64,000 bases of DNA, taken from assembly GCA_963666565.1 (NCBI GenBank), contig OY762911.1, positions 1,504,001-1,568,000 of the forward strand. The letters run 5' to 3'. Positions 2,821-57,186 of this stretch are shown here, in pieces; within the stretch, counting starts at the first letter, position 1; every line of letters starts with the position of its first letter. This stretch comes from Thermoanaerobaculia bacterium (GTDB taxonomy: Bacteria; Acidobacteriota; Thermoanaerobaculia; Multivoradales; Multivoraceae). Position numbers and translations under genes: made by a program. The notes below the pieces were generated by a model. The model was not told the origin of the DNA and ran no database searches. It saw nothing but the letters and a program-made list of their open reading frames with translations.

Positions 2821-2891
2821 TTCACCGCCTGAACGCGGCCCGCGGCGCCCAGTGGCCGCGGGCGGGCGGCGCGCGGTATTGAGGTCCTGAC

Positions 2892-3794: not shown

Positions 3795-3816
3795 GCGCAG
3801 CAACGGGTCGCTCGCT

Positions 3817-3840
3817 GGGTGCGCGGGTCTTCCGACCCGC
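3817..3840 (+). repeat. REP-like hairpin, family B
   Basis: GGGTGCGCGGGTCTTCCGACCCGC; stem GCGGGTC/GACCCGC; just after stop at 3794. Confidence 0.85.
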
Positions 3841-3890
3841 CCGCCGCTCCGCCCTGGGGCGTTCTATACTGCCGAACGGGAGGTTCCAGA

Positions 3891-4448
3891 TTGTCCGTCA
3901 AGACCCTTGCCGCCGTCGTTCCGGCTCTCGCCCTGGCCGCGGCGCCGCTCGCCGCCGCGCCGCCGCTGTTCGCCGAGGACGCGGCCTCCGTGGCACACCT
4001 GATCGAGCCGGACACCGTCCACCCGGCCACCGCGGAGCAGTTCAAGGCAGTCCTGGAACACCACCGCGGCAAGGTGGTCGTCGTCAACTTCTGGGCCACC
4101 TGGTGCATCCCTTGCCTTCAGGAACTCCCCGAACTCGACCTCCTGCAGGAGCGCTACGCCGACCGCGGCCTCGTCGTGCTCGCCGTTTCCATGGACGACC
4201 CGGAGAAGCTGGAGGACCGGGTCCGCCCCTTCTTCGCCAAGCGGGCGCCGGGCCTCGTCTCCTACCTCGCGTCGTCCGAGGGCGACTCGGTCGAATTCGT
4301 GACCGCGCTCGACCCGGAATGGCCGGGGGCGCTGCCGACGACGATGTTCTTCGACCGCGATGGGGAGTTCGTCAACATGCACCTCGGGCGGATGCTGTAC
4401 TCGGAGTTCGAAGAGGCCGTGCTCGAACTGCTCGGGGAGGACGCCTGA
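3891..4448 (+). CDS. TlpA/ResA-like thiol:disulfide oxidoreductase with signal peptide
   Basis: VVNFWATWCIPC, ALPTT; hydrophobic N-terminus; TTG start inferred. Confidence 0.85.
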   Translation: MSVKTLAAVVPALALAAAPLAAAPPLFAEDAASVAHLIEPDTVHPATAEQFKAVLEHHRGKVVVVNFWATWCIPCLQELPELDLLQERYADRGLVVLAVSMDDPEKLEDRVRPFFAKRAPGLVSYLASSEGDSVEFVTALDPEWPGALPTTMFFDRDGEFVNMHLGRMLYSEFEEAVLELLGEDA

Positions 4449-5404: not shown

Positions 5405-5422
5405 GCGCGTAGCATTGTCCCC

Positions 5423-6472
5423 ATGACCCTCGACTCGACGAATGGCGGCGCCTCGTCGGCCGCGGTGACCGACCTCCTCGGCCGGCCGTTGCGCGACCTG
5501 CGCATCTCCGTCATCGACCGTTGCAACTTCCGCTGCACGTTCTGCATGCCGGCCGACCGGGAGTACAGGTTCCTGCCGAGGCAGCAGTTGATGACGTTCG
5601 AGGAGATCGAGCGGCTGGTGCGGCTGTTCGTTCAACTCGGCGTGCGCAAGCTGCGGCTGACCGGCGGCGAGCCCCTCCTGCGGCGGGACATCGAGGATCT
5701 GGTCCGGCGTCTGGCCGCCGTTCCCGGAGTCGAGGACCTCGCCCTGACCACGAACGGCGCCCTGCTGGCGAAGAAAGCCCGCGCGCTTGCCGAGGCCGGC
5801 CTCGACCGGGTGACCGTCAGCGTCGAGTCGCTGCACGACGACGTCTTCGGCCGCGTGACCGGCCTCGGCCACGGCGTCGGCCAGGTGCTGGAGGGCATCG
5901 ACGCCGCGGCGGAAGCCGGCCTCGGCCCGATCAAGATCAACACGGTCGTCATGAAGGGAACGAACGAGGACGAGGTCGCCGACATCGCCGGCTACTTCAA
6001 GGAACGCGGCCACATCGTCCGCTTCATCGAGTTCATGGACGTCGGCACGGTGAACGACTGGAGCCTCGAGCAGGTCGTGACCGCCTCCGGGATCGCCGAC
6101 CGCATCGCCGAGCGCTGGGCCTTCGAGCCGGTCGACCGCGCCCAGCCCAGCGACGTCGCCGAGCGCTTCCGCTACCTCGACGACGGCGTCGAGTTCGGCG
6201 TCATCCCTTCCATCAGCCGCCCCTTCTGCGGGGACTGCGCCAGGGCCCGCCTCTCCTCCGACGGCCGCCTCTACACCTGCCTCTTCGCCGACACCGGCCC
6301 CTCGCTGCGCGACCGCCTCCGCGCCGGCGCCACGGACGACGACCTGCTCGCCTTCCTCGCCGCCCACTGGCGCCAGCGCGAAGACCGCTACTCCGAAGTC
6401 CGCGCCGAACGCCTCCGCGCCGGCCTGCAGCCGGCCGCGGAACGCGTCGAGATGTTCCGCATCGGCGGCTGA
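5423..6472 (+). CDS. moaA: GTP 3',8-cyclase (molybdenum cofactor biosynthesis)
   Basis: LRISVIDRCNFRCTFCMP, LTGGEP, FCGDCARARL..LYTCLF, C-terminal IGG. Confidence 0.95.
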   Translation: MTLDSTNGGASSAAVTDLLGRPLRDLRISVIDRCNFRCTFCMPADREYRFLPRQQLMTFEEIERLVRLFVQLGVRKLRLTGGEPLLRRDIEDLVRRLAAVPGVEDLALTTNGALLAKKARALAEAGLDRVTVSVESLHDDVFGRVTGLGHGVGQVLEGIDAAAEAGLGPIKINTVVMKGTNEDEVADIAGYFKERGHIVRFIEFMDVGTVNDWSLEQVVTASGIADRIAERWAFEPVDRAQPSDVAERFRYLDDGVEFGVIPSISRPFCGDCARARLSSDGRLYTCLFADTGPSLRDRLRAGATDDDLLAFLAAHWRQREDRYSEVRAERLRAGLQPAAERVEMFRIGG

Positions 6473-6520
6473 GACGCCCCGCGGCGCGGCCGCCCGGGGT
6501 GTGGCGACGTCGTCCGTGCA

Positions 6521-6710
6521 CCAGCCCGCGGCGGGGCCGGGGGGAGGGGCGCCAGGGGCCGCTCGCCCTCTCGGAGAGGATGGGGAGGGTGGGCTCGCTG
6601 TTGTCGGCTGCGCTCCGGTTCGACGTCGGTTGCCGGAACGGTGTAGGCAGTCGCTGGCCTCCGACCCCCTGGCGCCCCTCCCCCCGGCCCGCAGCGGGCT
6701 GGACGCCGTT
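6521..6710 (+). repeat. Full copy of ~200-bp palindromic-arm element, family A
   Basis: Arms 6521-6558 and 6666-6702 are reverse complements with one mismatch and one bulge. Confidence 0.85.
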
Positions 6711-6751
6711 GGGTGCGCGGGTCTTCTGACCCGCCGCCGCCGAAGGCGGCG
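6711..6751 (+). repeat. REP-like hairpin, family B, with GCCGCCGAAGGCGGC second hairpin
   Basis: GGGTGCGCGGGTCTTCTGACCCGC followed by CGCCGCCGAAGGCGGCG. Confidence 0.85.
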
Positions 6752-6924
6752 AACAGACGCCGCCGGCCGAAGAGACGGCGACCTCCCGGAATGTCAGGAC
6801 GGTGTGATGGCCGCTGGGGAGCAGCCCTGCCTGTGTGACCGTGCGCTGACCGGTCGGTGATTTCGCCGGAAAGGGCTCGTTCACGCGTTGACCGTCGGTG
6901 GACGCGGCCGGTACGCTGTCGGCG

Positions 6925-7125
6925 ATGACGACGGTCGAGCAGGCTGCGGAACGCGATCAGCGGCTTTCGGGACGCGACGAACCCGCTACTCGCGGCGACC
7001 TCTCCCTTTTGGCCGCCGAGATTCGCGCCGAGATCGCGGCCCTGGAATCTCGCCTCCTGTGGCGTCTTCTCGGCGGCGGTGGCGCCCTGCTGCTCCTTTC
7101 CCGTCTCGCCGACTTCCTTACCTGA
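6925..7125 (+). CDS. Small coiled-coil protein with C-terminal hydrophobic segment (DUF1640-like)
   Basis: ATRGDL..L.AEIRAEIAALESRLLWRLLG heptad pattern followed by a hydrophobic tail. Confidence 0.55.
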   Translation: MTTVEQAAERDQRLSGRDEPATRGDLSLLAAEIRAEIAALESRLLWRLLGGGGALLLLSRLADFLT

Positions 7126-7363
7126 CGTCGGCGTTCGCCACGACCTTCAACTCCAGACCGCTCTCCTGGAGAACGCGGTCCAGTATCCCCTCCTCGCGGC
7201 AGCCCTCGAAGAAGATCGCCAGGGCCTCATGCAGCATGGCCATGGCTTCCTCGACCGTGGAGCCCTGGCTCGCTACATGAAGCCCCGGACACGAGGCTAT
7301 CCAGGCGTCCCGCTCGCGGTGGACTTCTGCAGGAACTTCGGTACCGGGGACTGTGCGGATCAC
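7118..7363 (-). CDS. hicB: HicB-family antitoxin (orphan)
   Basis: WIASCPGLHVASQGSTVEEAMAMLHEALAIFFE matches the HicB N-terminal signature; GTG start inferred. Confidence 0.75.
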   Translation of the reverse strand: MIRTVPGTEVPAEVHRERDAWIASCPGLHVASQGSTVEEAMAMLHEALAIFFEGCREEGILDRVLQESGLELKVVANADVR

Positions 7364-7434
7364 TTGAACCTCCAAAGGCTGGAGTGCAACGTAGCACGGC
7401 CAGCCGTGAGGTCCGGCGACCTCATTCCAATGCC

Positions 7435-7631
7435 CGACGACGTCCAACCTGAAGCGGGTCCGGGGAAGGGTCCCAGCGGGCTGGAGGCCAGCGACTGCCC
7501 TTGTCCCCTCATCGACCAACTTCGTCTCGGAGCGCAGCCGACCGAAGCGAGGGCCAAGTCTCCTCATCCACCTGGAAGGCGCGAGCGTCCGTCTGGGACC
7601 CTCCCCCGGACCCGCTTCAGGCGGGTGCTAC
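7435..7631 (-). repeat. Full copy of family A element, inverted relative to 6521-6710
   Basis: Arms 7448-7476 and 7593-7621 (29 bp, one mismatch); internal GTCGGCTGCGCTCC and GGCAGTCGCTGGCCTCC (minus strand) shared with the 6521 copy; minus strand begins GTAGCACCCG. Confidence 0.85.
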
Positions 7632-7723
7632 TGCCGTCGCATCCGACCGTGAACGCTCCGCTTACGACGCGGTTCCGGTACAGTGACGCGCATGTGCACG
7701 GTCGCGAAACGGGAGCCGCGGCG

Positions 7724-8767
7724 GTGAGCACCCGGCCCCTGCTGGCGGCGGCCGAGGGTGAGCGGGACCGCAAGGCGGAGCACATCCGGCTGGCGCTTGA
7801 CCGGCGGATGCAGGTGGAGCGCAGCTACTTCGACGACTACCGCTTCGAGCACCGGGCACTGCCCGAGATCGACTTCGAGGACGTGCGGATCGGCGCCGAG
7901 TTTCTGGGCCGCGCGCTCCGCGCGCCGCTGCTCATCTCGTGCATGACCGGCGGCACCGGGGTTGCGGAGCGGATCAACCGGCGCCTCGCCGAGGCGGCGG
8001 AGGCGGAGCGGGTCGTGCTGGGGATCGGTTCGCAGCGCAAGGCGATCGACGATCCGGAGACGGCGGCGACGTTCCGCGTCCGGGAATTCGCGCCCAGCGT
8101 GCCGATCCTGGCCAACCTGGGCGCGGTGCAACTGAACTACGGCTACGGCATCGACGAGTGCCGCCGCGCGGTCGACATGGTCGAGGCCGACGCCCTGGCG
8201 CTGCACCTGAACGCGCTGCAGGAGGCGCTCCAGCCGGAAGGGCAACTCAACTTCCGCGGACTGCTGCCGAAGATCGCCCGCGTGGTCGAGGCGCTGGACG
8301 TGCCGGTCGTGGTCAAGGAGATCGGTTGCGGCATCTCGGCGGCGGTCGGCCGCGAGCTCGCCAACGTCGGCATCCGCATCCTGGACACGGCCGGCGTCGG
8401 CGGCACGAGCTGGGCTCGTATCGAGGCGGCCCGAGCCGACGAAACGGCCCTCGGCGAGCGCTTCGCCGACTGGGGGCTGCCGACGCCGGAGTCGATCCGC
8501 CAGTTGGCGGCGGTTCCCGGCGTGCAGGTGATCGGCAGCGGCGGCATCCGCTCCGGCGTCGATGCGGCGAAGGCCCTGGCGCTCGGCGCCGACATCGCCG
8601 GCATGGCGTTCCCGTTCCTCGAGGCGGCGAACGCCTCGACGGCCGCGGTGGTCGACCGGATCGCCCGCACCGCCTTCGAGCTGCGCACCTGCATGTTCTG
8701 CACCGGCGCCGCCGACCTCGCGGCGCTTCGCCGCGTGCCGCTCGCGCGGGAGGCTCGCAGTGGCTGA
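7724..8767 (+). CDS. fni: Type 2 (FMN-dependent) isopentenyl-diphosphate delta-isomerase
   Basis: RKAEHI, ISCMTGG, GSQR, HLNALQEALQPEG, VKEIGCG, GGTSW, SGGIR. Confidence 0.95.
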   Translation: MSTRPLLAAAEGERDRKAEHIRLALDRRMQVERSYFDDYRFEHRALPEIDFEDVRIGAEFLGRALRAPLLISCMTGGTGVAERINRRLAEAAEAERVVLGIGSQRKAIDDPETAATFRVREFAPSVPILANLGAVQLNYGYGIDECRRAVDMVEADALALHLNALQEALQPEGQLNFRGLLPKIARVVEALDVPVVVKEIGCGISAAVGRELANVGIRILDTAGVGGTSWARIEAARADETALGERFADWGLPTPESIRQLAAVPGVQVIGSGGIRSGVDAAKALALGADIAGMAFPFLEAANASTAAVVDRIARTAFELRTCMFCTGAADLAALRRVPLAREARSG

Positions 8768-8841
8768 GCGGCTCTCCAGGCTGCCCGGAGGTTCACGTCT
8801 CGAGAGTCGGCGTGCCAGCTCGCCGGCGCGGGAGGCCGTCC

Positions 8842-10119
8842 ATGTCTGATCGGTCGGTTGCCGGTCCTGAACTGGCCCCCGAGCTCGAGGCGGCGGCGGC
8901 CGAGATCGCCGGCTCGGAGCGCGGTTTCCACCGGCCGCCGCCGGGGCTCGACGCGGCGGGGAAGGCCGCGGTCCGCCGTCGTGCCCTGGACCTTGCGAGC
9001 GGCAGCGGACCGCTCACGACCATCGGCAGCTACGCCCTGGACGGCGAACGCGCGTCCACCCAGAACTGCGAGAACTTCATCGGCGCTGCCCAGGTGCCGA
9101 TGGGCGTCGCCGGGCCGGTTCGCGTCCGCGGGAGTGAGATCGACGGCACCGTCTGTGTGCCGATGGCGACCACAGAGGGGGCGCTGCTTGCCAGCGTGAA
9201 CCGCGGCTGCCGCGCGATCACGGCGGCGGGCGGCGCGACCGTCTTCGTCGAGGACGTGGGCATGACCCGGGCGCCGGTCTTTCGCACCACGGGAATTGAG
9301 GACACGAGGCGGCTGCTCAAGTGGCTGGAAGAGAACGAGGAGACGATCCGCGCCAAGGCTCACGAAACGAGTCGCTTCCTGGAACTTCGGGACATTCGAC
9401 CATCGGTGGTCGGAAGCACCGTGTTCCTTCGGTTCCGCTTCGCCACCGGCGACGCGATGGGCATGAACATGGTCACGATCGCCTGCGACCGCGTTGTGTC
9501 CGAGTTGATCGAGCCGGAGACCGGCGCCCAGTGCGTGGCGCTGTCGGGGAACTACTGCGTCGACAAGAAACCCTCCGCGGTCAACTACCAGCTCGGTCGC
9601 GGCAAGCGGATTCACGCAGAGGTGGTGCTGGACGAGACGACCGTGCGCAAGGTCCTCAAGTCGGAAGCGAACGCACTCCAGGACGTGGCCTACCGCAAGA
9701 ACCTGCTGGGCTCCGTCGCGGCCGGCGCGCTCGCCTTCAACGCCCAGTTCGCGAACGTGCTGGCGGCGGTCTTCGTCGCCTGCGGCCAGGATCTCGCCCA
9801 CGTCGTCGAGGGCGCGATGGGCGTCGCCTCGTTCGAGGCGCGCGACGACGGCTCGGTTTACGCGTCCGTCTACATGCCGGATTGTCCGCTGGCCGCGGTC
9901 GGCGGCGGCACGGGTCTGGACACCCAGCGCGAGGCGCTCGAAGTCATGGGCGTGCGGCCCGACGCGGAGCGGCCCGGCGCGGCGGTGCGCCGGCTGGCCG
10001 AGATCGTCGGCGCCGTCGTCCTGGCAGGCGAACTCTCCCTGACCGCGGCGTTCACGTCGCGCGACCTGGCGCGGGCCCACGAGCGGCTGGGCCGCTCCAG
10101 CGCCGCGAGCGCGGGTTGA
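8842..10119 (+). CDS. hmgA: HMG-CoA reductase, class I (NADPH, archaeal/eukaryote-like)
   Basis: CENFIG, PMATTEGALLAS, GDAMGMNM, SGNYCVDKK, VGGGT, LAGELSL, C-terminal His (HERLGR). Confidence 0.95.
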   Translation: MSDRSVAGPELAPELEAAAAEIAGSERGFHRPPPGLDAAGKAAVRRRALDLASGSGPLTTIGSYALDGERASTQNCENFIGAAQVPMGVAGPVRVRGSEIDGTVCVPMATTEGALLASVNRGCRAITAAGGATVFVEDVGMTRAPVFRTTGIEDTRRLLKWLEENEETIRAKAHETSRFLELRDIRPSVVGSTVFLRFRFATGDAMGMNMVTIACDRVVSELIEPETGAQCVALSGNYCVDKKPSAVNYQLGRGKRIHAEVVLDETTVRKVLKSEANALQDVAYRKNLLGSVAAGALAFNAQFANVLAAVFVACGQDLAHVVEGAMGVASFEARDDGSVYASVYMPDCPLAAVGGGTGLDTQREALEVMGVRPDAERPGAAVRRLAEIVGAVVLAGELSLTAAFTSRDLARAHERLGRSSAASAG

Positions 10120-10125
10120 ACCACC

Positions 10126-10689
10126 ATGTATGAAACCAGGGCGCTCGACGAGACGACCTGGCCGGAGTTCGCGCACCTCGTCGAGGCTAACAACGGTGTC
10201 TGGGGCGGGTGCTGGTGCCTTTGGTATCACGGGAAGGAAGTCAGCGAGAACAGAACGCTCGCTCAGAAGCGCAAGGCGAAGGAACGCCTCGTTCGTGAAG
10301 GCCGGGCGCATGCCTCGCTTGTCTTCGAGGGCGAGGACTGCGTGGGCTGGTGTCAGTTTGGATCGCCGGAAGAGCTTCCGCGGATCCACAATCAGCGCGC
10401 CTATCGGAAGACCGATCCGGTCTTGCCCGACTGGCGGATCACCTGCTTCTTCTCCGGCAAGGGACATCGCGGCAACGGAGTCGCTTCAGTCGCGTTGAAA
10501 GGCGCCATCGAGCAAATCAGGACGCTAGGCGGCGGGCGCGTTGAGGCGTACCCGGAGAACACAGAAGGCAGAAAAGCCTCGCCGGCATTCCTCTTCAACG
10601 GTTCGCTGTCCATGTTCGAACGGAGCGGTTTCAAGCGATCGCAGCAGATCGGGAAGCACAAGTGGGTCGTGACGCGAACGATCAGGTAA
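10126..10689 (+). CDS. GNAT-family acetyltransferase
   Basis: GGCWC, VGWCQ, ITCFF..KGHRGNGVA acetyl-CoA motif, VEAYP; lower GC than neighbours. Confidence 0.8.
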   Translation: MYETRALDETTWPEFAHLVEANNGVWGGCWCLWYHGKEVSENRTLAQKRKAKERLVREGRAHASLVFEGEDCVGWCQFGSPEELPRIHNQRAYRKTDPVLPDWRITCFFSGKGHRGNGVASVALKGAIEQIRTLGGGRVEAYPENTEGRKASPAFLFNGSLSMFERSGFKRSQQIGKHKWVVTRTIR

Positions 10690-10730
10690 CGCCGGGGAGC
10701 TCAGTACAGAAGAGGATTGGCGCCGACCTC

Positions 10731-11873
10731 ATGTCGAAGTTCAATCCAGGCGGAAGAGGAGAGGCGGAGGCGTCGGTGGTGCGGTTGAGCGTGCCCGGCA
10801 AGGTGATCCTGATGGGGGAGCACGCGGCGGTGTATGGCCGGCCGGCTGTGGTGGCGGCCGTGGACCTGCGCCTTGCCGTCGAGGCTCGTAGCGATCCGGC
10901 AGGTGTCGGCCGGATTCGCCTGGACCTGCCTGACCTCGGTCTTCAGGAGGAGCACTCGTGGCCGGCGCTTGAGGACTTCACGAACCGCGCCCGCCGTCGA
11001 TGGAACAGGTTCGAGGCGGGCGACGTGCCGTTCAGGCCGGCGGACGACCGGAGTGCCCTGGTCCGGATCGCGGTCGGTGAAGCGGCGGCGTCTTTGCCAC
11101 CGGCGGTTTCGGAACGGCTGCGACGACGGGGGTTGGAGTTGCGGTTGCGGTCCCAGCTTCCGGTCGGGGCCGGCCTTGGTAGCTCGGCTGCGGCTGCTGT
11201 CGGAGTGGTTGCTGGCGTCCGAGCACTGGCGGGGAGACGGGTTCGCTCACCCGACGAACTGGCTGCGATCGAGGCGGCGGCGCTCGGGGTCGAGCGGCGG
11301 CAGCACGGTTTCCCGTCGGGGATCGACAGTGGAACGGTGCTGCGTGGCGGCGTTCTGCTCGTTCGCCGTGAAGGGGACGAGTTGCGATTCGAGGACCTGC
11401 CGAGGCCGGAGTGGCTTCCGGGCGAGGTCGCGATCCTGGACAGCGGGACGCCTGACCAGACCACGGGCACGGTGGTCACGGCGGTGCGACGGCGCTATGA
11501 GGAAGAGCCAGAGCGGACGATCGCCGTGTTCGACCGCATCGGGGCGGCGGTCGAGTCCTTTCGCGCGGCGCTTGGGGACGGCGGGCCGCGGGACGCGGCG
11601 GCAGCCATCGCCGACGGTCATCGCGCCCTGGTCGAACTCGGCGTGGTGCCGCCGCCGGTCGCTCGCCGGATTGCGTCGGTGGAAGCTGCCGGGGGCGCGG
11701 CGAAGATCTCCGGGGCCGGGGCTCTTGAAGGCGAGTCGGCCGGCGCCCTGGTCTGCATGCTCGGCGGCCGGTCAGTCGAGACGATCGATGGAATCCCGGA
11801 CCTCGAGCCGGTGAACGCGGCGATCGGTGCCGACGGCCTGAGGTTCGAGAGTCCCATCGCCGATCGACTGTAG
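10731..11873 (+). CDS. mvk: Mevalonate kinase (GHMP)
   Basis: PGKVILMGEHAAVYG, PVGAGLGSSAA, HGFPSGID, AKISGAG. Confidence 0.9.
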   Translation: MSKFNPGGRGEAEASVVRLSVPGKVILMGEHAAVYGRPAVVAAVDLRLAVEARSDPAGVGRIRLDLPDLGLQEEHSWPALEDFTNRARRRWNRFEAGDVPFRPADDRSALVRIAVGEAAASLPPAVSERLRRRGLELRLRSQLPVGAGLGSSAAAAVGVVAGVRALAGRRVRSPDELAAIEAAALGVERRQHGFPSGIDSGTVLRGGVLLVRREGDELRFEDLPRPEWLPGEVAILDSGTPDQTTGTVVTAVRRRYEEEPERTIAVFDRIGAAVESFRAALGDGGPRDAAAAIADGHRALVELGVVPPPVARRIASVEAAGGAAKISGAGALEGESAGALVCMLGGRSVETIDGIPDLEPVNAAIGADGLRFESPIADRL

Positions 11874-11885
11874 GCTTCGGGAGAG

Positions 11886-12938
11886 ATGAACTCCGCGTTG
11901 GAACCGGCCCATGAGCCTGGGCCCGTGACTGCTGAGGCGCCTTCGAACATCGCTTTCATCAAGTACTGGGGCGCCCGGGATCTCAAGGGTCCGGTTCCCT
12001 TCAACCGCTCGCTGTCGATGACCCTGGATGCCTGCCGGTCGATCTGCTCGGCGTCTCCCCTGGCCAACGGACGGGACGACGAGATCGTCTGGCTGGAAGA
12101 GCCGTCTGCCGGTCGAACCGAGGCCGCCGCGGAAGCGCCGCCGGCCTTCGTCGAGCGGACGCGGCGGCACCTGGACCGGCTTCGCGAGTGGTCGCGGCAG
12201 ACGACGGCGCCTTACGCGGGCGGGTTCCGGATCGCGACCGGCAACACTTTCCCGGCGGCGGCCGGGATCGCCTCATCCGCTTCGGGCTTCACCGCCCTGA
12301 CCCTCGCCGTGACGGCCGCCATGGGCTTCGACCTGCCGCCACCGACTCTGTCCGCCCTGTCGCGGAGCAGCGGCTCGGGCTCGGCCGCCCGCTCGGCCTA
12401 CGGCGGCTACGTGGAGTGGCCCGGCGGGAACGGCAACAGCGCGGTCCAGGTCCTCGGCGAGGACGCCTGGCGGCTCTGCGACGTGGTCGCCGTGGTCGAG
12501 ACCGGCGCCAAGAAGGTCTCGTCGCGGGACGGGCACCGGCTTGCCACGAGCAGTCCGTACTTCGCGCCGCGCCTGGCCGCGCTCGAAGGGCGGCTGGACC
12601 AGGTTCGGGCCGCCCTCGAACGGCGCGACTTCGAGGCCCTCGGCCAGGCGGTCGAGGAGGAAGGGATCGATCTCCACCTGATTGCGATGTCGTCCCGGCC
12701 TCCGGTGTACTACTGGTCGCCGGGGACGATCGAGGTGCTGGCGGCGGTCCGCGACCTGCGGGCGGACGGCGTCGCCGCCTACGCGACGATGGATGCCGGC
12801 GCCAACGCCCACGTCATCTGCCAGCCCGGCGACGAACAGCGCGTGGCGGAACGGCTCGGCGCCCTCGGCGCCGTCGAGCGCGTGCTGCGGGACCGCACCG
12901 GCGGGCCGCCCGTCTGGCGGAGCGGAGCCGAGCTTTGA
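11886..12938 (+). CDS. mvaD: MvaD-family decarboxylase (probably phosphomevalonate decarboxylase)
   Basis: SNIAFIKYWG, GIASSASG, GSGSAARS, KKVSS, TMDAGAN; substrate inferred from context. Confidence 0.9.
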   Translation: MNSALEPAHEPGPVTAEAPSNIAFIKYWGARDLKGPVPFNRSLSMTLDACRSICSASPLANGRDDEIVWLEEPSAGRTEAAAEAPPAFVERTRRHLDRLREWSRQTTAPYAGGFRIATGNTFPAAAGIASSASGFTALTLAVTAAMGFDLPPPTLSALSRSSGSGSAARSAYGGYVEWPGGNGNSAVQVLGEDAWRLCDVVAVVETGAKKVSSRDGHRLATSSPYFAPRLAALEGRLDQVRAALERRDFEALGQAVEEEGIDLHLIAMSSRPPVYYWSPGTIEVLAAVRDLRADGVAAYATMDAGANAHVICQPGDEQRVAERLGALGAVERVLRDRTGGPPVWRSGAEL

Positions 12939-12955
12939 GTGCGGCCGCCGCCGCG

Positions 12956-13900
12956 ATGTCTGGCGGCGCGTCCTCGCGCCAGCGCCCTGGTCCGAGCGCC
13001 CGTCCTCGGGCGGTCGGGCGTCGCGCCGCCGGCGACCGGCCAGCCGTCACGCTGCTCAAGCTCGGCGGCAGCCTGATCACCGACAAGACGAAGCCGCGCG
13101 CGCTCGCAAAGGAACACCTGGGGCGGCTGGCGGCCGAGATCGCGGCGGGATGGTCGGGGAACGGCCTCGTCATCGGTCACGGCAGCGGTTCCTTCGGCCA
13201 CCCGGAGGCGCAGGCGGCCGGCCTCGCCGGGGGCGCGGGAGGCCGCCGGCTCGACCCGGAAGCCGCCGCGATGGGCATCGCGCGCACGCAATCCGCTGCC
13301 TTCGAGCTCCACCGGCTGGTCGTCGGAAGCCTGGTCGAGGCGGGCGTGCCCGCCTACTCGCAGCCGCCGTCGAGCTTCCTGGTCGCCGACGACGGCGAAC
13401 CCCGGGGCGCTCCGCCCGAGCCCATGGCGGCCGCGCTGCGGCGGGGCCTCGTGCCCGTCACGATGGGCGACGTCGTGATCGACAGCGAGCGCGGCGCAGC
13501 GATCGTCTCCACCGAGACGGTGTTCGGGTTTCTGGTCGGGGCGCTGGCCGGACTGGGGATCGACGTGAAGCGGGTCGTGTGGCTGGGCGTGACCGCCGGC
13601 GTGCTGGACCGGGAGGGGCGTCCGATGCCGCGCATTGACGCCTCGAACATCGAGGCCGCGACGGCGGCGGCCGGCGGTTCCGCCGCGGTCGACGTCACCG
13701 GCGGCATGGAACACCGGCTTGCCGCCGCCTGGCGGCTGGCCCGGCGCGGCGTCGAGTCGCTGATCGCCGACGGCAGGCGGCCGGGCCTGCTCCAGTCGGT
13801 GCTCCGCCATCCGGGCGGTGAGGCCGAGGTCGCCGGTACACTCGTGAGCGCCGTCGGCCAGGCGCCTGCGCCGCAGGGCGCAGCGAAGCAGGTTCTGTGA
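12956..13900 (+). CDS. ipk: Isopentenyl phosphate kinase (amino-acid kinase family)
   Basis: LKLGGSLITDK, GHGSGSFGH with the IPK-specific His, GDV, DVTGGM; alternative TTG start at 12935. Confidence 0.9.
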   Translation: MSGGASSRQRPGPSARPRAVGRRAAGDRPAVTLLKLGGSLITDKTKPRALAKEHLGRLAAEIAAGWSGNGLVIGHGSGSFGHPEAQAAGLAGGAGGRRLDPEAAAMGIARTQSAAFELHRLVVGSLVEAGVPAYSQPPSSFLVADDGEPRGAPPEPMAAALRRGLVPVTMGDVVIDSERGAAIVSTETVFGFLVGALAGLGIDVKRVVWLGVTAGVLDREGRPMPRIDASNIEAATAAAGGSAAVDVTGGMEHRLAAAWRLARRGVESLIADGRRPGLLQSVLRHPGGEAEVAGTLVSAVGQAPAPQGAAKQVL

Positions 13901-14025
13901 CGCACGGTGCCGGTTGGGTGGGGGCTGGCGCCAAGCACGGACTCTGCGACGGGTTTGGCGGCTCTGGCCGACCTCCTGAGCGGCGACATCGAGACCTCCA
14001 TCCGGATCTGTCCACCGAGAGAACC

Positions 14026-14706
14026 ATGCGCGCGAGCAGCACCGTCGAGGACTACCTCAAGTGCATCTTCCTGGCTGAGCACGAGGCCAGCCTGGAGAGC
14101 GCCCAGCTCGTGCCGATGGGCCGGATCGCGGCGCGCCTCAAGGTGGCGCCGGCCTCGGTCACGGCGATGATGAAGACTCTCTCCGAGTCCGGCCTGATTG
14201 CCTATGAGCCCTACAGCGGAGTGCGTCTCCTTCCTGCCGGCCGGAAGCTGGCGACGCACGTGCTGCGGCGCCACCGCCTGGTGGAACTCTTCCTGGTGAA
14301 CGTGATGGGCTTCGACTGGAGCGAGGTCCATGCCGAAGCCGAACTGCTCGAGCATTCCGTCTCCGAACGGATGATCGAGCGGATGGACGAGATGCTCGGC
14401 CATCCGTCGGTCGATCCCCACGGCGACCCGATCCCCAGCGCCGACGGCTACATCGAGATCGTGGACCACCCGAGTCTGCTGAGGTGCCCGCTGAACTGCA
14501 CGGTCGAGGTGGTGCGCGTCACCGACCAGGACGCCGACTTCCTGCGCTTCGCCGAACGCGAGGGTCTGGCGCCAGGGAAGTGGATCGAGGTTGCGGCTCG
14601 CGACGAGACCGCGGGCAGCGTCGCCGTAGTCTCCGGCAGCCGGCAGTTCAGCCTCGGCTTCCCGGCCGCGTCCAAGGTACTCGTGCGGGAGGCGAACCAG
14701 GCCTGA
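14026..14706 (+). CDS. mntR: DtxR/MntR family metal-dependent regulator with FeoA-like C-domain
   Basis: VEDYLK, RRHRLVELFL, EVHAEAELLEH, DPHGDPIP. Confidence 0.9.
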   Translation: MRASSTVEDYLKCIFLAEHEASLESAQLVPMGRIAARLKVAPASVTAMMKTLSESGLIAYEPYSGVRLLPAGRKLATHVLRRHRLVELFLVNVMGFDWSEVHAEAELLEHSVSERMIERMDEMLGHPSVDPHGDPIPSADGYIEIVDHPSLLRCPLNCTVEVVRVTDQDADFLRFAEREGLAPGKWIEVAARDETAGSVAVVSGSRQFSLGFPAASKVLVREANQA

Positions 14707-14731
14707 TCGCCGGCCGCAGACCTCGCTCCTT

Positions 14732-15244
14732 TCAGACGCAGTCGTTACTCTTCGCGACGACGAAGAGCGGGTCGCCGCCGTCGACGGTCTGGCCGACCTC
14801 CACGAGGAGCTTCTCCAGGCGGCCGTCGATCTCGGACTGGATCTCGTTCTCCATCTTCATCGCCTCGAGCACGACGACGCCCTGGCCGGAGGCCACCTCG
14901 TCGCCCTCGGCCGCGAGCACGGCCGTGACCCGGCCGGGCATGTAGGCGGTCGCCTCGAACACGTCGGCGGCGCCCTGCCGGGCCGCCTCTCCGAGGATCC
15001 GCGAGCGGGGGTCGATCACCGTGAGTTCGGCGCCGTCCACGGCGTAGACGCCCTTGCCGAGCGAGCGGACGTTCCGGGTCGCCTGGCGTCCGTCGACGAT
15101 CATGCTCAGTACGTCGGGCCGTCCCAGGGTCGCGGCGTCCACCCGGTACTCGCGGCCGTCGACCGCCACGGTCCACTGGCCGTCCGCCTCGTCGCGGACC
15201 TCGACGCGAACTTCGCCGGCGCCGCGGGCGACGATCAGTTCCAC
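14732..15244 (-). CDS. Biotin carboxyl carrier subunit
   Basis: MPGRV..LEAMKMENEI biotinylation motif; GTG start overlaps the end of the biotin carboxylase. Confidence 0.9.
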   Translation of the reverse strand: MELIVARGAGEVRVEVRDEADGQWTVAVDGREYRVDAATLGRPDVLSMIVDGRQATRNVRSLGKGVYAVDGAELTVIDPRSRILGEAARQGAADVFEATAYMPGRVTAVLAAEGDEVASGQGVVVLEAMKMENEIQSEIDGRLEKLLVEVGQTVDGGDPLFVVAKSNDCV

Positions 15245-16779
15245 GCCGTGCCCCTCCGGGCGTCGCGGCGCGCGGCGAGCAGCCAGTTCGACCGCGGGGC
15301 GCCGTCGCCTGCCGCCGCGCCGGCGCCGTTCGTCTCGATCCGCGTCACGTGGGCGAGAACGGCGGCGAGGACGGGCAGATCGGCCTCCAGGGCGCCGTCC
15401 TCCGGCGCCGCCGGCCGCAACTCGCCGGTCTCGAGCTTGCGGTCGAGCATCGAGATGTCCATGTTGCCGGCTACGAAGTCCTCGTCCTCGAGCAGCAGTT
15501 CGAACAGGGGCAGGTTCGTGCGGATGCCCTCGACCCGGGTCTCGGCGAGCGCTCGCTTCAGCCGAGCCAGCGCGTCGGCGCGGTCCCGCCCCCAGACGAT
15601 CAGCTTGGCCAGCATCGGGTCGTAGTGGATCGTGACCTCGGCGCCCTCGTAGACGCCGCAGTCGTTGCGCACGCCCGGCCCCTCCGGCAGTTGCAGCAGT
15701 TCGATCCGGCCGGGCGAGGGCGCAAAGTTGCGGAACGGATCCTCCGCGTACAGCCGGACCTCGACGGCGTGCCCCCTGGGCTCGATGCCGTTCTCGAGGG
15801 CCTCGGGCAGCGGCTCGCCGGCCGCGATGTCGAGCTGGGCGGCGACGATGTCGATGCCGGTCACCAGCTCGGTGACCGGATGCTCCACCTGGATCCTCGT
15901 GTTCATCTCCAGGAAGTAGAAGTCCCCCCGCGGATCGAGCAGGAACTCGACCGTGCCGGCGCCGGCGTAGTTCACCGCGGCGGCGGCGCGGACCGCCGCT
16001 TCGCCCATGCGGCGGCGGAGATCCGCGTCGACGACGGGCGACGGCGCCTCCTCGACGACCTTCTGGTGGCGTCGTTGCAGCGAGCACTCCCGTTCGCCGA
16101 GGGAGACGATCCGTCCGTGCCGGTCGCCGAGGATCTGGATCTCGACGTGGCGGGGCCGCTCGACGAAGCGCTCGATGTAGACCGAGGCGTCGTCGAAGCT
16201 GGCGCCGGCCTCCGAGGTCGCGCCGCGGAACGCCGCGTCGAGCTCGCTCTCCTCGCGCACCAGCCGCATCCCCTTGCCGCCGCCGCCGGCGGACGCCTTC
16301 AGCATCACCGGGTAGCCGATCTCGGCCGCCGCCGCGCGGGCAGCCTCGGCGGAGGCCAGCGGGTCCGTGCCGCCCGGCACGATGGGCACGCCGGCCGCGG
16401 TCATCAGGCGGCGGCTCTCGATCTTCGAGCCCATCGCCGCGATCGCCGCCGACGGCGGCCCGATGAAGGCGATGCCGCGCTCCTCGCAGAGACGGGCGAA
16501 ACCGGCGTTCTCCGACAGGAAGCCGTAGCCGGGATGGATCGCGTCGGCGCCGACGAAGGCGGCGAGGTCGACGATCCTCCCGGCCTGGAGGTAGCTCTCG
16601 ATCGAGGGCGCGGGGCCGATGCAGTGCGCCTCGTCCGCCATCCGCGTGGCGAGACCGGCGCGGTCCGCCTCCGAGTAGACGGCGACCGAGACGATGCCGC
16701 GCTCGCGGAGCGCCCGGATCACCCGCACCGCGATCTCGCCGCGGTTCGCGACGAGTACCTTCCGTAGGCCGTTCTTCAT
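15235..16779 (-). CDS. accC: Biotin carboxylase subunit of acyl-CoA carboxylase
   Basis: VANRGEIA, HPGYGFLSEN, GGGGKGMR, RECSLQRRHQK, EMNTRIQVEHPVTE, YDPMLAKL. Confidence 0.95.
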   Translation of the reverse strand: MKNGLRKVLVANRGEIAVRVIRALRERGIVSVAVYSEADRAGLATRMADEAHCIGPAPSIESYLQAGRIVDLAAFVGADAIHPGYGFLSENAGFARLCEERGIAFIGPPSAAIAAMGSKIESRRLMTAAGVPIVPGGTDPLASAEAARAAAAEIGYPVMLKASAGGGGKGMRLVREESELDAAFRGATSEAGASFDDASVYIERFVERPRHVEIQILGDRHGRIVSLGERECSLQRRHQKVVEEAPSPVVDADLRRRMGEAAVRAAAAVNYAGAGTVEFLLDPRGDFYFLEMNTRIQVEHPVTELVTGIDIVAAQLDIAAGEPLPEALENGIEPRGHAVEVRLYAEDPFRNFAPSPGRIELLQLPEGPGVRNDCGVYEGAEVTIHYDPMLAKLIVWGRDRADALARLKRALAETRVEGIRTNLPLFELLLEDEDFVAGNMDISMLDRKLETGELRPAAPEDGALEADLPVLAAVLAHVTRIETNGAGAAAGDGAPRSNWLLAARRDARRGTAWN

Positions 16780-26130: not shown

Positions 26131-26152
26131 GAGGTCCCGCACCGGGCGCGCC

Positions 26153-53730: not shown

Positions 53731-55041
53731 TCAGCGCCCGAGCGCGGGCAGGTTCTTCACCAGGTCGGAGTAGAGCGCGAACATCATGATCGCGAGCACC
53801 ACCGCCAGGCCGAACTGGGTCACCAGGTTCTTGATCCGGATCGAGAGGTCCCGGCGCAGAACGCTCTCGAACAGCAGGATGACGAGTTGGCCGCCGTCGA
53901 GCAACGGGATCGGCAGCAGGTTCAGGATGCAGATGTTCAGGCTGATCAGGGCGATCAGGAAGACGAGATCGCTGAAGCTCCTGCGAGCCGCCTGACCGCT
54001 GATCCGGCCGATCTCGATCGGTCCGGCCAGGGCGCTCTGCGGCGAGACCCGCCGCTCCATCATGCCGCCCAGGAAGCCGAAGATCTCCTCCGTCGTCTCC
54101 CAGTTGATGCGCGCGCTCTCGGCGACCGCGGCGACCGGGCCGACGCGCCGGTAGGAGAAGTGGCTGATCGCGATGCCGGCGCGGCCGACCCCGCCTTCCC
54201 TCTCCGGAACGAGCCGCACGAGCATGCGTTCCTCGCCGCGGCCGATCTCGATGCTCACTTCCTCGCCCGCCCGCGGCTCGACGAGCTGCCGGAAGTCGGC
54301 CGCGTCGGAGATCGGGTGGCCGTCGACGGCGTAGAGCGTGTCTCCGTACCGCAGGCCGACCTGCTCGGCCGGGGTGTCCTCGAACACCTGGCGAATCCGT
54401 GGCAGGAGGCTGGCGTAGAGCCCGGCGTCGCCCAGCTCGTAGCGCGGCATCCTGCGCGGGACGAGCACGGTGTTCAGAGCCTCTCCGTCGCGCTCGAAGT
54501 CGACGTCGAGGGCGCGTTCCGGCGACATCAGGACGGCGTTCGAGACGGCGCGCCAGTCGGGCATCTCCTCGCCGTCCAGGCTCAGGATGACGTCGCCCGG
54601 CATCAGCCCGGCCTCGGCCGCGGCGGACTCCGGTTCGACGCCTCCGATCTCGGTGCCGAGATCCCGCGGCCCGGCAAGTTCCGTGCCGGTCATCAGCACC
54701 GCGGCGATCAGCGCGATCGAGAGCACGACGTTGGCCGCCGGACCTGCCAGGAGCACGATCGTCCGCTGCCAGCGCGGCCTGGCGGTGAAGTCGCCGGCGT
54801 CGCCGGTGGGGTTGGCGGCGTCGACTTCCGAGAACGCGACGTAGCCGCCAAGGGGGATGATGGCCAGCCGGTACTCCGTGTCGCCGCGCTGGAAGCCCCA
54901 GATGCGGGAACCGATGCCGATGGAGAAGACCCGAACCCGGATCCGGAGCAGCCGGGCAGCCAGGAAGTGGCCCAGCTCGTGAATGAAGATGACGACTCCG
55001 ACCACGACCAGGAAGGCCAGCGTGTTGCTGAGGAAAGTCAT
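53731..55041 (-). CDS. rseP: RIP metalloprotease RseP
   Basis: HELGH, IPLGGYV, AGPAAN, two PDZ domains, NLLPIPLLDGG. Confidence 0.95.
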   Translation of the reverse strand: MTFLSNTLAFLVVVGVVIFIHELGHFLAARLLRIRVRVFSIGIGSRIWGFQRGDTEYRLAIIPLGGYVAFSEVDAANPTGDAGDFTARPRWQRTIVLLAGPAANVVLSIALIAAVLMTGTELAGPRDLGTEIGGVEPESAAAEAGLMPGDVILSLDGEEMPDWRAVSNAVLMSPERALDVDFERDGEALNTVLVPRRMPRYELGDAGLYASLLPRIRQVFEDTPAEQVGLRYGDTLYAVDGHPISDAADFRQLVEPRAGEEVSIEIGRGEERMLVRLVPEREGGVGRAGIAISHFSYRRVGPVAAVAESARINWETTEEIFGFLGGMMERRVSPQSALAGPIEIGRISGQAARRSFSDLVFLIALISLNICILNLLPIPLLDGGQLVILLFESVLRRDLSIRIKNLVTQFGLAVVLAIMMFALYSDLVKNLPALGR

Positions 55042-55144: not shown

Positions 55145-56341
55145 CTAACCGCCGAATCGCTCCAGGACTTCCCGCGCCCGCCGCCGGCCCCACGAATCCC
55201 ACTCCAGCGCTTCGTCGATCGTCGCCGGCTCCGAACCGCCGGCCTCCCGGCCGTGACGCTCCAGCACCTCCGCCGCCGCCGGCACGATGGCGGTGAAGGG
55301 CGCCTCGCCGCCCAGGAAGGCCGCCACCGCCGTCTCGTTCGCCGCGTTGAGCGCCGCCGGCCCGCCCCGGCCCCGGGCGAGCGCTTCGCGCGCCAGGGAC
55401 GGCGCCGGGAAGACCTCCGGGTCGACTCCGCGGAAGTCCAGCGCGGAGCTCGCCTCCAGCAGTGCGCTCAGTCCATTCGCGCGCCCGTCGTGTCGCCGCG
55501 GCCAGCGTTCGGGGTAGGACAGCGCGTACTGGATCGGGTACTCCATGTCGTTGGCCGAGATCTGGGCGATCGAGTTGCCGTCGCGGAACTCGACGATCGA
55601 GTGAACCAGGGACTGCGGGTGGATCAGGATGTCGATGCGCGGTCCCGGAACGTCGAACAGGTAGCTGGCCTCGATCAGTTCCAGCCCCTTGTTCATCAGG
55701 GTCGCGGAGTCGACGCTGATCTTGGCCCCCATGGCCCACGTCGGATGTGCGGTCGCTTCGGCCGGCGTCACCGAGTCCAAGGTGGCGGGATCGCGGTCCA
55801 GGAACGGGCCGCCGGAGGCGGTCAGCACCAGGCGGCGGACCTCCCCGGGGCGTCCCGCGCGCAGCGCCTGGTGGATCGCGGCGTGCTCGCTGTCGACCGG
55901 CAGGAGCCGGGCGCCGGAGGCGGTCGCCAGCCGGCGCAGCAGCGGGCCGGCGGCGACCATCGCCTCCTTGTTGGCGAGGGCCAGATCGGCGCCGGCGGCG
56001 AGGGCGGCCGCGGCGGGCCGGAGGCCGGCGGCGCCGACGATCGCGGTCAGTACCAGGTCGATCCGGCCTTCGCCGACGGCGTCGACCAGCGCCGCTTCGC
56101 CCCAGGCGAGGGCGGCGCCCGGCGGCAGATCGCTCCGCACGCGCCCGGCCGCCTCCTCGGTTTCGACCACGACCCGGCGCGGCCGGAACTCCCGCGCCAG
56201 CTCCGCCAGCCGCGCCGGCTTCGTGCCCCTCGCGGCGAGCACGGCGACGTCCAGCTTCTCGGGGTGCTGCCGGGCCACGGCCAGCGCGGCCTCGCCGACC
56301 GAGCCGGTGGCGCCGAGCACGGCCAGATTGCGCGCGCTCAC
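55145..56341 (-). CDS. dxr: 1-deoxy-D-xylulose-5-phosphate reductoisomerase
   Basis: LGATGSVG, LANKE, PVDSEH, LTASGGPF, HPTWAMGAKISVDSATLMNKGLELIEA, NAANE. Confidence 0.97.
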   Translation of the reverse strand: MSARNLAVLGATGSVGEAALAVARQHPEKLDVAVLAARGTKPARLAELAREFRPRRVVVETEEAAGRVRSDLPPGAALAWGEAALVDAVGEGRIDLVLTAIVGAAGLRPAAAALAAGADLALANKEAMVAAGPLLRRLATASGARLLPVDSEHAAIHQALRAGRPGEVRRLVLTASGGPFLDRDPATLDSVTPAEATAHPTWAMGAKISVDSATLMNKGLELIEASYLFDVPGPRIDILIHPQSLVHSIVEFRDGNSIAQISANDMEYPIQYALSYPERWPRRHDGRANGLSALLEASSALDFRGVDPEVFPAPSLAREALARGRGGPAALNAANETAVAAFLGGEAPFTAIVPAAAEVLERHGREAGGSEPATIDEALEWDSWGRRRAREVLERFGG

Positions 56342-57186
56342 GGCAGGAGCGAAGGCGCCGCGCCGGCCTGGACGGCGACGTAGAACACGGGCGCCGCCAG
56401 CAGCACGCTGTCGAGCCGGTCCAGCAGCCCGCCGTGGCCGGGCAGAAGGCCTCCCGTGTCCTTGACCTCCACGGCGCGCTTGAGCAGGGAGGCGACGAGA
56501 TCGCCCACCTGGGCCACGGCGCCGCAGAGCAGAGCCATGGCGGGGATGTCGATGCCGAGCGAGTCGGGCCCGCGCCAGACCAGGAACACGGCGACGCCGG
56601 CCGCGACGCTGGCGAGCAGACCGCTCACCGCGCCGCCGACCGTCTTCTTCGGGCTGAGCACGGGCGCCAGCGGCCGGCGTCCGAGCCGGCGGCCGCCGTA
56701 GTACGCGCCGACATCGCCCAGGGAGGCGACCGCGAGGATCCAGAACAGGAGCGCCGGCGAGCCGGCGTGCAGGTCGATCGCGGCGACGAGGAACAGGCCG
56801 AGCCACAGGACGCCGAACGCGAACAGCGACGAGGTCAGGAGCCGGTCGCGGACATTGGCGCGGTTGCCGAGACCGACGGCCAGCGCCAGGGCGAGGACGA
56901 GGGCCGCCACGGCGAACCAGACGCCGGCGCGGGTCGGACCCGCCGGCAGGGGCAGGTCGATCAGCCCGTTCCCGTTCGCGCAGGCGGCGGCCACCGCGCC
57001 GATGGCCAGCCACAGCGCCCAGGCGAGGGCGCGCGAGCCGACGATTCGCCGCACCAGGGCGCCGTACTCGGCCGCCGCCAGGACCATCGTTGCGGTGGCG
57101 GCCGCCACGAAGTAGACGGGTTCGAGGTAGAGGACGATGGCTGCCGCCAGCGCCGCGGTCACGACACCGGTGACGATGCGCTTCAT
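56338..57186 (-). CDS. cdsA: Phosphatidate cytidylyltransferase
   Basis: SPKKTV.G, GDLVASLLKR..VKDTG.LLPGHGGLLDRLDS. Confidence 0.95.
   Translation of the reverse strand: MKRIVTGVVTAALAAAIVLYLEPVYFVAAATATMVLAAAEYGALVRRIVGSRALAWALWLAIGAVAAACANGNGLIDLPLPAGPTRAGVWFAVAALVLALALAVGLGNRANVRDRLLTSSLFAFGVLWLGLFLVAAIDLHAGSPALLFWILAVASLGDVGAYYGGRRLGRRPLAPVLSPKKTVGGAVSGLLASVAAGVAVFLVWRGPDSLGIDIPAMALLCGAVAQVGDLVASLLKRAVEVKDTGGLLPGHGGLLDRLDSVLLAAPVFYVAVQAGAAPSLLP

Follow-up and report, generated by a model that had tools for sequence, protein, structure and literature searches.

Isopentenyl diphosphate (IPP) can be reached from mevalonate-5-phosphate (MVA-5-P) through isopentenyl phosphate, by a phosphomevalonate decarboxylase (PMD, also called MPD) and an isopentenyl phosphate kinase (IPK); this route was reportedly described by VanNice in 2014 in Haloferax volcanii. 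In the available excerpts of Hoshino 2018, Aoki 2022 and Zhu 2024, the Chloroflexi are the only bacteria credited with it, the other holders being haloarchaea. Here we describe a run of five mevalonate genes at positions 7724-13900 (+ strand) of a 64 kb stretch of DNA from a soil-type Thermoanaerobaculia bacterium (Acidobacteriota; Ca. Multivoradales); this whole stretch, hereafter the window, is part of a contig of 4.79 Mb (4,786,144 bp). We put at roughly 70% the probability that the operon specifies the isopentenyl-phosphate version of the lower mevalonate pathway, because of the active-site residues of its decarboxylase, the closest characterised relative of that enzyme, the conserved linkage to IPK and the local absence of a phosphomevalonate kinase (PMK).

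The genes are fni, a class I 3-hydroxy-3-methylglutaryl-coenzyme A (HMG-CoA) reductase gene (HMGR), mvk, a gene for an MvaD-family decarboxylase and one for IPK. They lie on one strand with intergenic gaps of 6-74 nt, and each of their reading frames is uninterrupted and complete. HMG-CoA reductase would produce mevalonate, and the single GHMP kinase, encoded by mvk, would convert it to MVA-5-P. The MvaD-family enzyme would decarboxylate MVA-5-P directly to isopentenyl phosphate, IPK would place a second phosphate on the latter to give IPP, and the type 2 isomerase would interconvert IPP and dimethylallyl diphosphate (DMAPP). Both the preference of the decarboxylase for MVA-5-P and the flux through the pathway are what we infer from sequence.

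Among PDB sequences, the decarboxylase best matches the MPD of Anaerolinea thermophila (6n0x/6n0y, 196 bits); the diphosphomevalonate decarboxylase (DMD, also called MDD) of E. faecalis scores 156 bits. Entry 6n0x holds the A. thermophila phosphomevalonate decarboxylase with bound MVA5P, according to the accessible part of PMC9254496. Residues Ala30 and His217 of the window enzyme align with N20 and H194 of A. thermophila MPD, at positions where the MDDs of E. faecalis and S. aureus carry Lys and Met; entry 6n0z is titled in the PDB as an A. thermophila MPD mutant, N20K/H194M. In the excerpt of Zhu 2024, a conserved lysine is diagnostic of DMD and a conserved histidine of PMD, and Table 4 of Dellas 2013 counts Lys21 (S. 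epidermidis) as MDD-like.

We surveyed these residues in 81 aligned rows: the window and 80 loci fetched in one scan of species-representative genomes, whose six-frame open reading frames (ORFs) were marked with the window's own proteins. Every row of the acidobacterial clade (28/28) has Ala/His, and His217 is also invariant in alignment A1. The classical clade carries Lys/Met together with a one-residue insertion in 20/20 rows; Chloroflexota rows mostly show Asn, Val or Gln with His. Measured by what marks a classical DMD, the window decarboxylase has no Lys at the β-phosphate site, no Met, no insertion and no PMK neighbour.

The AlphaFold model of the decarboxylase (mean predicted local distance difference test, pLDDT, 88; predicted template modelling score, pTM, 0.89) finds A. 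thermophila MPD as its top structural match, with a template modelling (TM) score of 0.85-0.86 at 36% identity, against 0.78-0.84 and 26-30% for MDDs. The predicted fold would weakly favour MPD identity. It adds little, since MDD structures trail MPD closely, the MvaD family spanning TM 0.78-0.86.

The kinase at the end of the operon has IPKs for all of its six best PDB sequences (12 entries), at 88-96 bits, with FomA at 48. It reaches 136 bits on the IPK model and 44-46 bits on fosfomycin kinase models. The catalytic features of IPK, for which Table 2 of Dellas 2013 served as the source of conserved residues, are kept: the glycine-rich N-terminal Lys/Gly motif, the equivalent of His60 and the DVTGG (Asp-x-Thr-Gly) motif. 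The counterparts in relatives are often already named 'isopentenyl phosphate kinase [Acidobacteriota / Thermoanaerobaculia]' by public pipelines.

The linkage extends through the acidobacterial clade, which comprises 27 loci (L001-L026 and L033, with Gemmatimonadota in the title of one and 'uncultured bacterium' in that of another). Gene order and strand are alike in 27/27, to the extent of each contig. The mvk gene lies directly 5' of the decarboxylase gene in all 27 and IPK lies 3' of it in 26, the contig of L001 stopping 25 nt past the decarboxylase; 24 loci show fni and 25 show HMGR, contig ends having cut off the rest. The nearest decarboxylases in the scan belong to 'Ca. Multivorans azotirespirans' (90% identity), a Thermoanaerobaculia metagenome-assembled genome (MAG; 86%) and 'Ca. 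Multivorans sp.' (80%), and the order still holds across relatives whose decarboxylases are 49-90% identical to that of the window.

We searched for PMK with two profiles, one from PMKs confirmed next to classical decarboxylases in other loci (TIGR01220 up to 449 bits) and one from the second tandem kinases of loci of the candidate phyla radiation (CPR) type. Both were run on all loci and on the entire window, translated in six frames, with a reporting mark of 45 bits. No PMK was found in the window, where the two profiles match only the operon's mvk (55 and 90 bits, true PMKs giving 400-550), nor in the 27 acidobacterial loci with flanks of up to 10 kb, where mvk alone exceeds 45 bits. Across the window and these loci, mvk scores 37-76 bits on the PMK profile, and in all 27 relatives the mevalonate kinase profile outscores the PMK profiles; the decarboxylase gives a marginal 11-19 bits on the second-kinase profile. 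In the full survey, a PMK or second GHMP kinase occurs in the locus of 0 of the 54 rows without Lys or Arg at the Lys site and of 24 of the 27 rows with one, and IPK in 31 of the 54 and 1 of the 27.

Several observations weigh against the isopentenyl-phosphate reading. The first is one of scope: of the 4.79 Mb of the contig, 64 kb are covered by the PMK search, and the claim of the first-pass annotation that there is no PMK stands for that stretch. Next, the haloarchaeal-type PMD model NF040704 gives the decarboxylase 123 bits (cutoff 475), and the DMD model TIGR01240 gives it 202, above the cutoff of 171. L068, taken as a proxy of A. thermophila PMD (418 bits to 6n0x; about 70% identity by eye), shows the same pattern, with 249 bits on TIGR01240 and 182 on NF040704, and we rejected the NCBIfam PMD/DMD scores as a discriminator on that ground. 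All 8 non-classical decarboxylases tested, L068 included, pass the TIGR01240 cutoff, and NF040704 covers the haloarchaeal type of PMD only. Public annotation calls the decarboxylases of the clade 'diphosphomevalonate decarboxylase'.

The residues themselves are not uniformly MPD-like. At the positions of Table 4 in Dellas 2013 (n=6), only the Lys21 equivalent is clearly so in the window decarboxylase. The column of R. castenholzii Arg83 (S. epidermidis Ile27), where an Arg would be expected to bind the single phosphate, holds Pro, with a Lys two residues earlier; in most other acidobacterial clade members an Arg immediately precedes that column. The equivalents of Ser139, Ser141 and Ser192 are Ser, as in MDDs and also in A. 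thermophila MPD. The Dellas numbering was carried over through an alignment with the S. aureus chain, from which we infer the mapping.

The association between the Lys site and the gene context also carries less than its counts suggest. The state of the site switches just twice on the tree, and phylogenetically independent contrasts of the Lys site with PMK or IPK amount to 1-2 pairs only; the association is therefore without statistical weight. L032, with Lys and His, adjoins IPK, and the fused protein P0154 has Arg at the Lys site. Because of these exceptions the Lys site alone is not decisive. P0154 (608 aa), which falls among His-type relatives, is a natural fusion of IPK and decarboxylase (NF040647 198 bits, TIGR01240 266 bits), and its existence speaks for our reading. 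Other fusions join the decarboxylase to a mevalonate-kinase-like domain (P0148) or to a GHMP-kinase domain (P0187, P0214, P0156).

A quick maximum-likelihood tree (81 rows, 344 columns) places the acidobacterial decarboxylases in one monophyletic group of 28 rows, with a Shimodaira-Hasegawa-like approximate likelihood ratio (SH-aLRT) support of 99. Their sister is an IPK-linked MAG sequence, L048 (96), and they stand outside the classical clade (96). The approximately unbiased (AU) test nonetheless fails to reject a grouping of the acidobacterial clade with the classical DMD clade (delta lnL 5.07, p = 0.42), and we have dropped phylogeny as evidence for PMD identity for that reason. The check proposed at the outset, a phylogeny of the decarboxylase against PMD and DMD references, yielded a distinct and supported clade but no placement of it with PMDs over DMDs (AU p = 0.42).

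These points bear above all on a classical route, in which the enzyme would be a true diphosphomevalonate decarboxylase, PMK would be encoded elsewhere in the genome and IPK would merely salvage isopentenyl phosphate. The reach of the PMK search, 64 kb of 4.79 Mb, leaves room for such a kinase; against this, a PMK or second kinase accompanies 24/27 loci of the Lys/Arg type and 0/27 acidobacterial loci. The TIGR01240 score above cutoff would fit a DMD, but a close proxy of a proven PMD passes that cutoff as well. A Ser-Ser-Arg stretch ahead of the His is MDD-like and the AU test allows a sister relation to classical DMDs (p = 0.42), whereas the change of the DMD Lys to Ala and of Met to His runs through 28/28 clade members. 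The excerpt of Dellas 2013 does report active IPKs in organisms with the classical pathway; here IPK sits directly 3' of the decarboxylase in 26/27 loci. On these grounds we hold the classical route to be improbable.

The decarboxylase might also have dual specificity, as an intermediate between PMD and DMD that takes both MVA-5-P and mevalonate-5-diphosphate (MVA-5-PP); both branches would then be possible if a kinase makes the diphosphate. The combination of PMD-like Ala and His with the MDD-like Ser-Ser-Arg would suit such an enzyme. A Chloroflexota enzyme with both activities appears in the excerpt of Zhu 2024, A. thermophila MPD was crystallised with MVAPP and with MVAP according to PDB titles, and in CPR loci a second kinase, at times an IPK too, accompanies a decarboxylase of the His type. 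No second kinase, however, lies near any of the 27 loci, and the absence of the Lys at the β-phosphate site would make good turnover of MVA-5-PP less likely. We judge dual specificity unlikely, and retain a decarboxylase that would act mainly within an isopentenyl-phosphate route.

The G+C content of the window is about 72%. Genes were called by their third-position G+C (GC3) and checked against curated models, and starts were chosen as in-frame codons with Shine-Dalgarno-like motifs. The features are collected in Table 1. The five genes named by the first-pass annotation are present on the + strand where it had placed them, each with curated-model matches; its list left unmentioned a 187-aa GNAT-like ORF that interrupts the run. 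The diderm host that it named is supported by window genes for BamD, YbgF/CpoB, TolQ/R and TonB. The taxonomic check it called for gave Acidobacteriota; Thermoanaerobaculia; Ca. Multivoradales, near 'Ca. Multivorans', the closest proteins coming from Acidobacteriota/Thermoanaerobaculia MAGs.

Table 1. Genes of the mevalonate operon, the MEP-pathway cluster of the window and squalene/phytoene-synthase-family (SQS_PSY) genes of related loci.
Feature	Position or locus	Strand	Evidence
fni, type 2 (FMN-dependent) isopentenyl-diphosphate isomerase	7724..8767	+	TIGR02151 386 bits (cutoff 281), PF01070; GC3 0.93
HMG-CoA reductase, class I (NADPH type)	8842..10119	+	PF00368 388 bits; TIGR00533 426 bits
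GNAT-like acetyltransferase ORF, 187 aa, between HMGR and mvk	10126..10689	+	Pfam Acetyltransf_1 20.5 bits
mvk, mevalonate kinase, sole GHMP kinase of the operon	10731..11873	+	TIGR00549 top match
MvaD-family decarboxylase, putative mevalonate-5-phosphate decarboxylase (PMD/MPD)	11886..12938	+	PF22700 123 bits, PF18376 55 bits, TIGR01240 202 bits
IPK, isopentenyl phosphate kinase	12956..13900	+	NF040647 134-136 bits (cutoff 120)
dxr (MEP pathway)	55145..56341	-	TIGR00243 357 bits (cutoff 316), full length
cdsA	56338..57186		
rseP	53731..55041		
SQS_PSY gene directly 3' of IPK	L008-L013, L015-L018, L021, L023, L025, L026, L033		profile
SQS_PSY gene 2-4.6 kb from IPK	L006, L007, L022		profile

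The fni start is a GTG preceded by a GGGAG motif, and HMGR starts with an ATG behind GGGAGG; IPK has an alternative TTG start at 12935, which overlaps the stop of the decarboxylase gene. The class of the reductase follows from its scores, the class I model coming slightly below its cutoff of 441.8 bits and the class II model TIGR00532 giving 34. The GNAT-like ORF, just short of the Acetyltransf_1 gathering score of 20.7 and with an Atlas feature score of 0.99 to GNAT clusters, probably stands outside the pathway. A scan of 6300-15300 returned 0 promoter-like sites and 6 terminator-like sites (3.3 expected), none of them at a gene end; an Rfam scan of the whole window gave no match.

The score of mvk weighs against our reading as well: its top model, TIGR00549, gives 137.5-137.8 bits, below the curated cutoff of 163. 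In one relative (L004:8451-9580), mvk matches are split over two overlapping frames, which may reflect a frameshift, a pseudogene or an error of MAG assembly. One may ask whether these genes are a remnant, silent or in decay, or whether the last kinase is another enzyme of the amino-acid-kinase fold, for example of the fosfomycin type. The low mvk score and atypical GC3 (0.79), the foreign ORF within the operon, the two frames in L004 and the presence of a gene of the methylerythritol phosphate (MEP) pathway could be read in that way. Five open, full-length frames, an order conserved in relatives at a decarboxylase identity to the window of only 49-90%, an IPK-model score of 136 bits versus 44-46 on fosfomycin kinase models and the kept catalytic residues make both ideas very unlikely, and we proceed with an intact isopentenyl-phosphate operon.

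The first-pass annotation had the route arise "probably after horizontal acquisition". The GC3 values of fni, HMGR, the decarboxylase and IPK span 0.885-0.93, a range that reaches the lower edge, or just below it, of the other window genes (mean 0.927, sd 0.021, minimum 0.886). Only two members of the operon stand out: mvk, and the GNAT-like ORF, with GC 0.61 and GC3 0.77 versus 0.72 and 0.93 for 45 other window genes. Among the 27 clade loci, that ORF is confined to L001 and L002, the two closest relatives, which makes it a recent insertion. The window's mvk aligns with its counterparts at 696 (L001), 616 (L002) and 461 bits (L003), by which measure it is more diverged than the neighbouring genes; there are hints of a local replacement event at mvk.

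A recent horizontal transfer of the entire operon was considered and rejected: it is shared clade-wide, with decarboxylase identity down to 49%, and GC3 is near-typical in most of its genes. With monophyletic decarboxylases besides, a recent import is unsupported, and the operon is an old feature of the Thermoanaerobaculia-related clade. An ancient transfer may have taken place.

The window also carries dxr, within a cdsA-dxr-rseP cluster of the usual arrangement. The MEP route is thus probably present too, and IPP does not necessarily derive from the mevalonate operon alone; both routes in one genome are described as uncommon in the literature excerpts at hand. The proposal that this lineage makes IPP via isopentenyl phosphate is partly supported: Ala/His, an MPD as closest solved relative, the IPK motifs and the lack of a local PMK speak for it, the tree lends it no support, and dxr suggests that the route is probably not the only one to IPP.

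No HMG-CoA synthase or thiolase is found among the 48 + 11 + 17 ORFs of the window, so HMG-CoA has to be supplied by genes that lie elsewhere. A biotin carboxylase gene lies downstream of mntR (15235-16779, - strand), to which L003 (12610-14711, - strand) adds a biotin-carrier gene; a carboxyltransferase of the methylmalonyl/propionyl-CoA type is encoded at about 35270-36804 (+) of the window. Were these carboxylase genes to specify a methylcrotonyl-CoA carboxylase, HMG-CoA could arise from the degradation of leucine, which is pure speculation.

A possible purpose of the operon is visible in its relatives. Among 10 relatives whose flanks were scanned with Pfam, 7 have a same-strand SQS_PSY gene 3' of IPK. 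We built a profile from those 7 sequences, self-matching by construction, and ran it on all loci: of the 22 clade loci with at least 1 kb beyond IPK, 18 have the gene on that side, directly adjacent in 15 and 2-4.6 kb off in 3 (Table 1), so that most relatives have it as a sixth gene of the operon. Its top NCBIfam match is squalene synthase, at 76-94 bits, far below the cutoff of 287. L025 ('Ca. Multivoradales'; 1458-6420) has, just 5' of fni, genes for squalene-hopene cyclase (640 bits), for HpnH (365 bits) and for a phosphorylase resembling HpnG. The same profile finds no such gene in L002-L004, L024 or the whole window, a further point against our reading. Within the clade, the operon probably feeds triterpenoid (squalene or hopanoid) synthesis, a link not visible in the window's own subclade; it may do so alongside a MEP pathway. 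L006 and L016 have a terpene-oxygenase-like P450 gene upstream.

Elsewhere in the window, the 1.25 kb between moaA and fni (6473-7723) hold no confident gene, with a weak GC3 signal, a sub-threshold DUF7387 match (- strand) and no Rfam match. A selA gene at 29608-30708 (-) implies the use of selenocysteine, and prepilin peptidase, pilin-like and PilY1-like genes occupy 25339-29516 (+).

Further decarboxylases of interest occur among the fetched loci. In Anaerolineae-type loci (L053, L054, L058, L063, L067, L071, L073, L075), the gene directly 3' of the decarboxylase encodes an rseP-like site-2 protease and is not a mevalonate gene. In the Brevefilum/Anaerolineaceae sequences of L063, L071 and L075 the Lys site is Leu or Phe, the His site is Met and the insertion is lacking, a fourth combination of which we know of no assayed member. 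Of 10 clusters looked up for the nearest non-acidobacterial relatives, one bears an organism name, Anaerolineaceae, and another a product name only. Decarboxylase and IPK genes are neighbours in a Planctomycetota MAG (L065:8879-11769, where mvk is also found), in a MAG titled Gammaproteobacteria (L048:10001-11805) and in a Paceibacterota MAG (L032:1546-3390); the three IPKs all score above the NCBIfam cutoff.

A wider picture can be drawn, though only tentatively, as we find it doubtful as a whole. Two IPP routes would run side by side in Thermoanaerobaculia, a housekeeping MEP pathway and an isopentenyl-phosphate operon tied to a squalene-synthase-like gene and devoted to triterpenoid (hopanoid) lipids. 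The Ala/His clade would represent a third lineage of MVA-5-P decarboxylases, independently evolved or ancestral, apart from those of Chloroflexi and haloarchaea. With the decarboxylase-IPK pairs in Planctomycetota, 'Gammaproteobacteria' and Paceibacterota MAGs, the route would be scattered wider in Bacteria than the literature states.

The gene set itself has been seen once before. In the subdivision-22 genome 'Mor1' of Sinninghe Damste et al. 2017 (PMC5462960), the supplementary gene list holds a type II IDI, HMG-CoA reductase, mevalonate kinase and 'mevalonate diphosphate decarboxylase'; the searched portion of the paper takes them as an (incomplete) classical pathway, notes 'most mevalonate genes' and reports the genome to lack MEP genes. 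The searched text and supplement make no mention of IPK. By its gene list, not by sequence, 'Mor1' resembles our locus L025; it differs from the window in being reported without MEP genes, since the window carries dxr. A full-text search for an acidobacterial IPK, a 'haloarchaea-type' route or Thermoanaerobaculia mevalonate returned nothing relevant, most subscription papers lying outside it. That the operon extends the known range of the route, as was first suggested, is borne out in so far as the excerpted literature gives Chloroflexi as the only bacterial phylum, and is tempered by four of the genes having been reported in 2017 in one acidobacterial genome. What we did not find in print is the assignment to an isopentenyl-phosphate route and its class-wide conservation.

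If true, the assignment would alter the taxon sampling that underlies scenarios for the origin of PMD, DMD, PMK and IPK. A systematic misannotation as 'diphosphomevalonate decarboxylase' would be corrected, the NCBIfam models tested being blind to the type of enzyme. The operon would provide a compact five-gene cassette, with one enzyme family fewer than mixed pathways, and Ala/His would be a new active-site variant for studies of specificity. Its association with squalene and hopanoid genes would matter for deciding which organisms hopanoid biomarkers come from.

Among known systems, the MPD and IPK of Chloroflexi (Roseiflexus castenholzii, Dellas 2013; A. thermophila 6n0x, 6n0y, 6n0z) share with the window a decarboxylase without the DMD Lys and with the PMD His, an IPK and the lack of a nearby PMK. 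The window enzyme is nevertheless only 36% identical to A. thermophila MPD and belongs to a separate clade (28 rows, SH-aLRT 99). Its Lys site is Ala, as in all its clade, where Chloroflexi have Asn, Val, Gln or Leu, and the equivalent of Arg83/Arg27 is absent. In the window all five genes, among them a class I HMGR, belong to a single operon; in contrast, the decarboxylase stands without IPK and without an MVK-like kinase in 22/24 Chloroflexota loci, and the excerpt of Hoshino 2018 reports no clustering in Chloroflexi and HMGR-II there.

The haloarchaeal PMD/IPK pathway shares the same presumed chemistry, MVA-5-P to isopentenyl phosphate to IPP. The window protein differs from haloarchaeal PMD in its 123 bits on NF040704 (cutoff 475), and in being bacterial and operon-encoded. 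CPR (Patescibacteria) genomes have mixed sets, as described in the excerpt of Hoshino and Gaucher 2018, and share with the window His-type decarboxylases and a sometimes adjacent IPK (L032); their decarboxylases retain Lys or Arg, however, and those of the Microgenomates-type loci L029, L031 and L034 adjoin two tandem GHMP kinases.

Classical mvk-mvaD-pmk operons (Bacillota and others) have in common with the window the HMGR, MVK, decarboxylase and IDI-2 families and an operon organisation. Where the classical loci L049, L061, L076 and L077 show Lys/Met and an adjoining PMK (TIGR01220 332-449 bits), the window has Ala/His and IPK, with no PMK. Set beside these systems, the acidobacterial operon remains, as predicted from its genes, a range extension of known chemistry.

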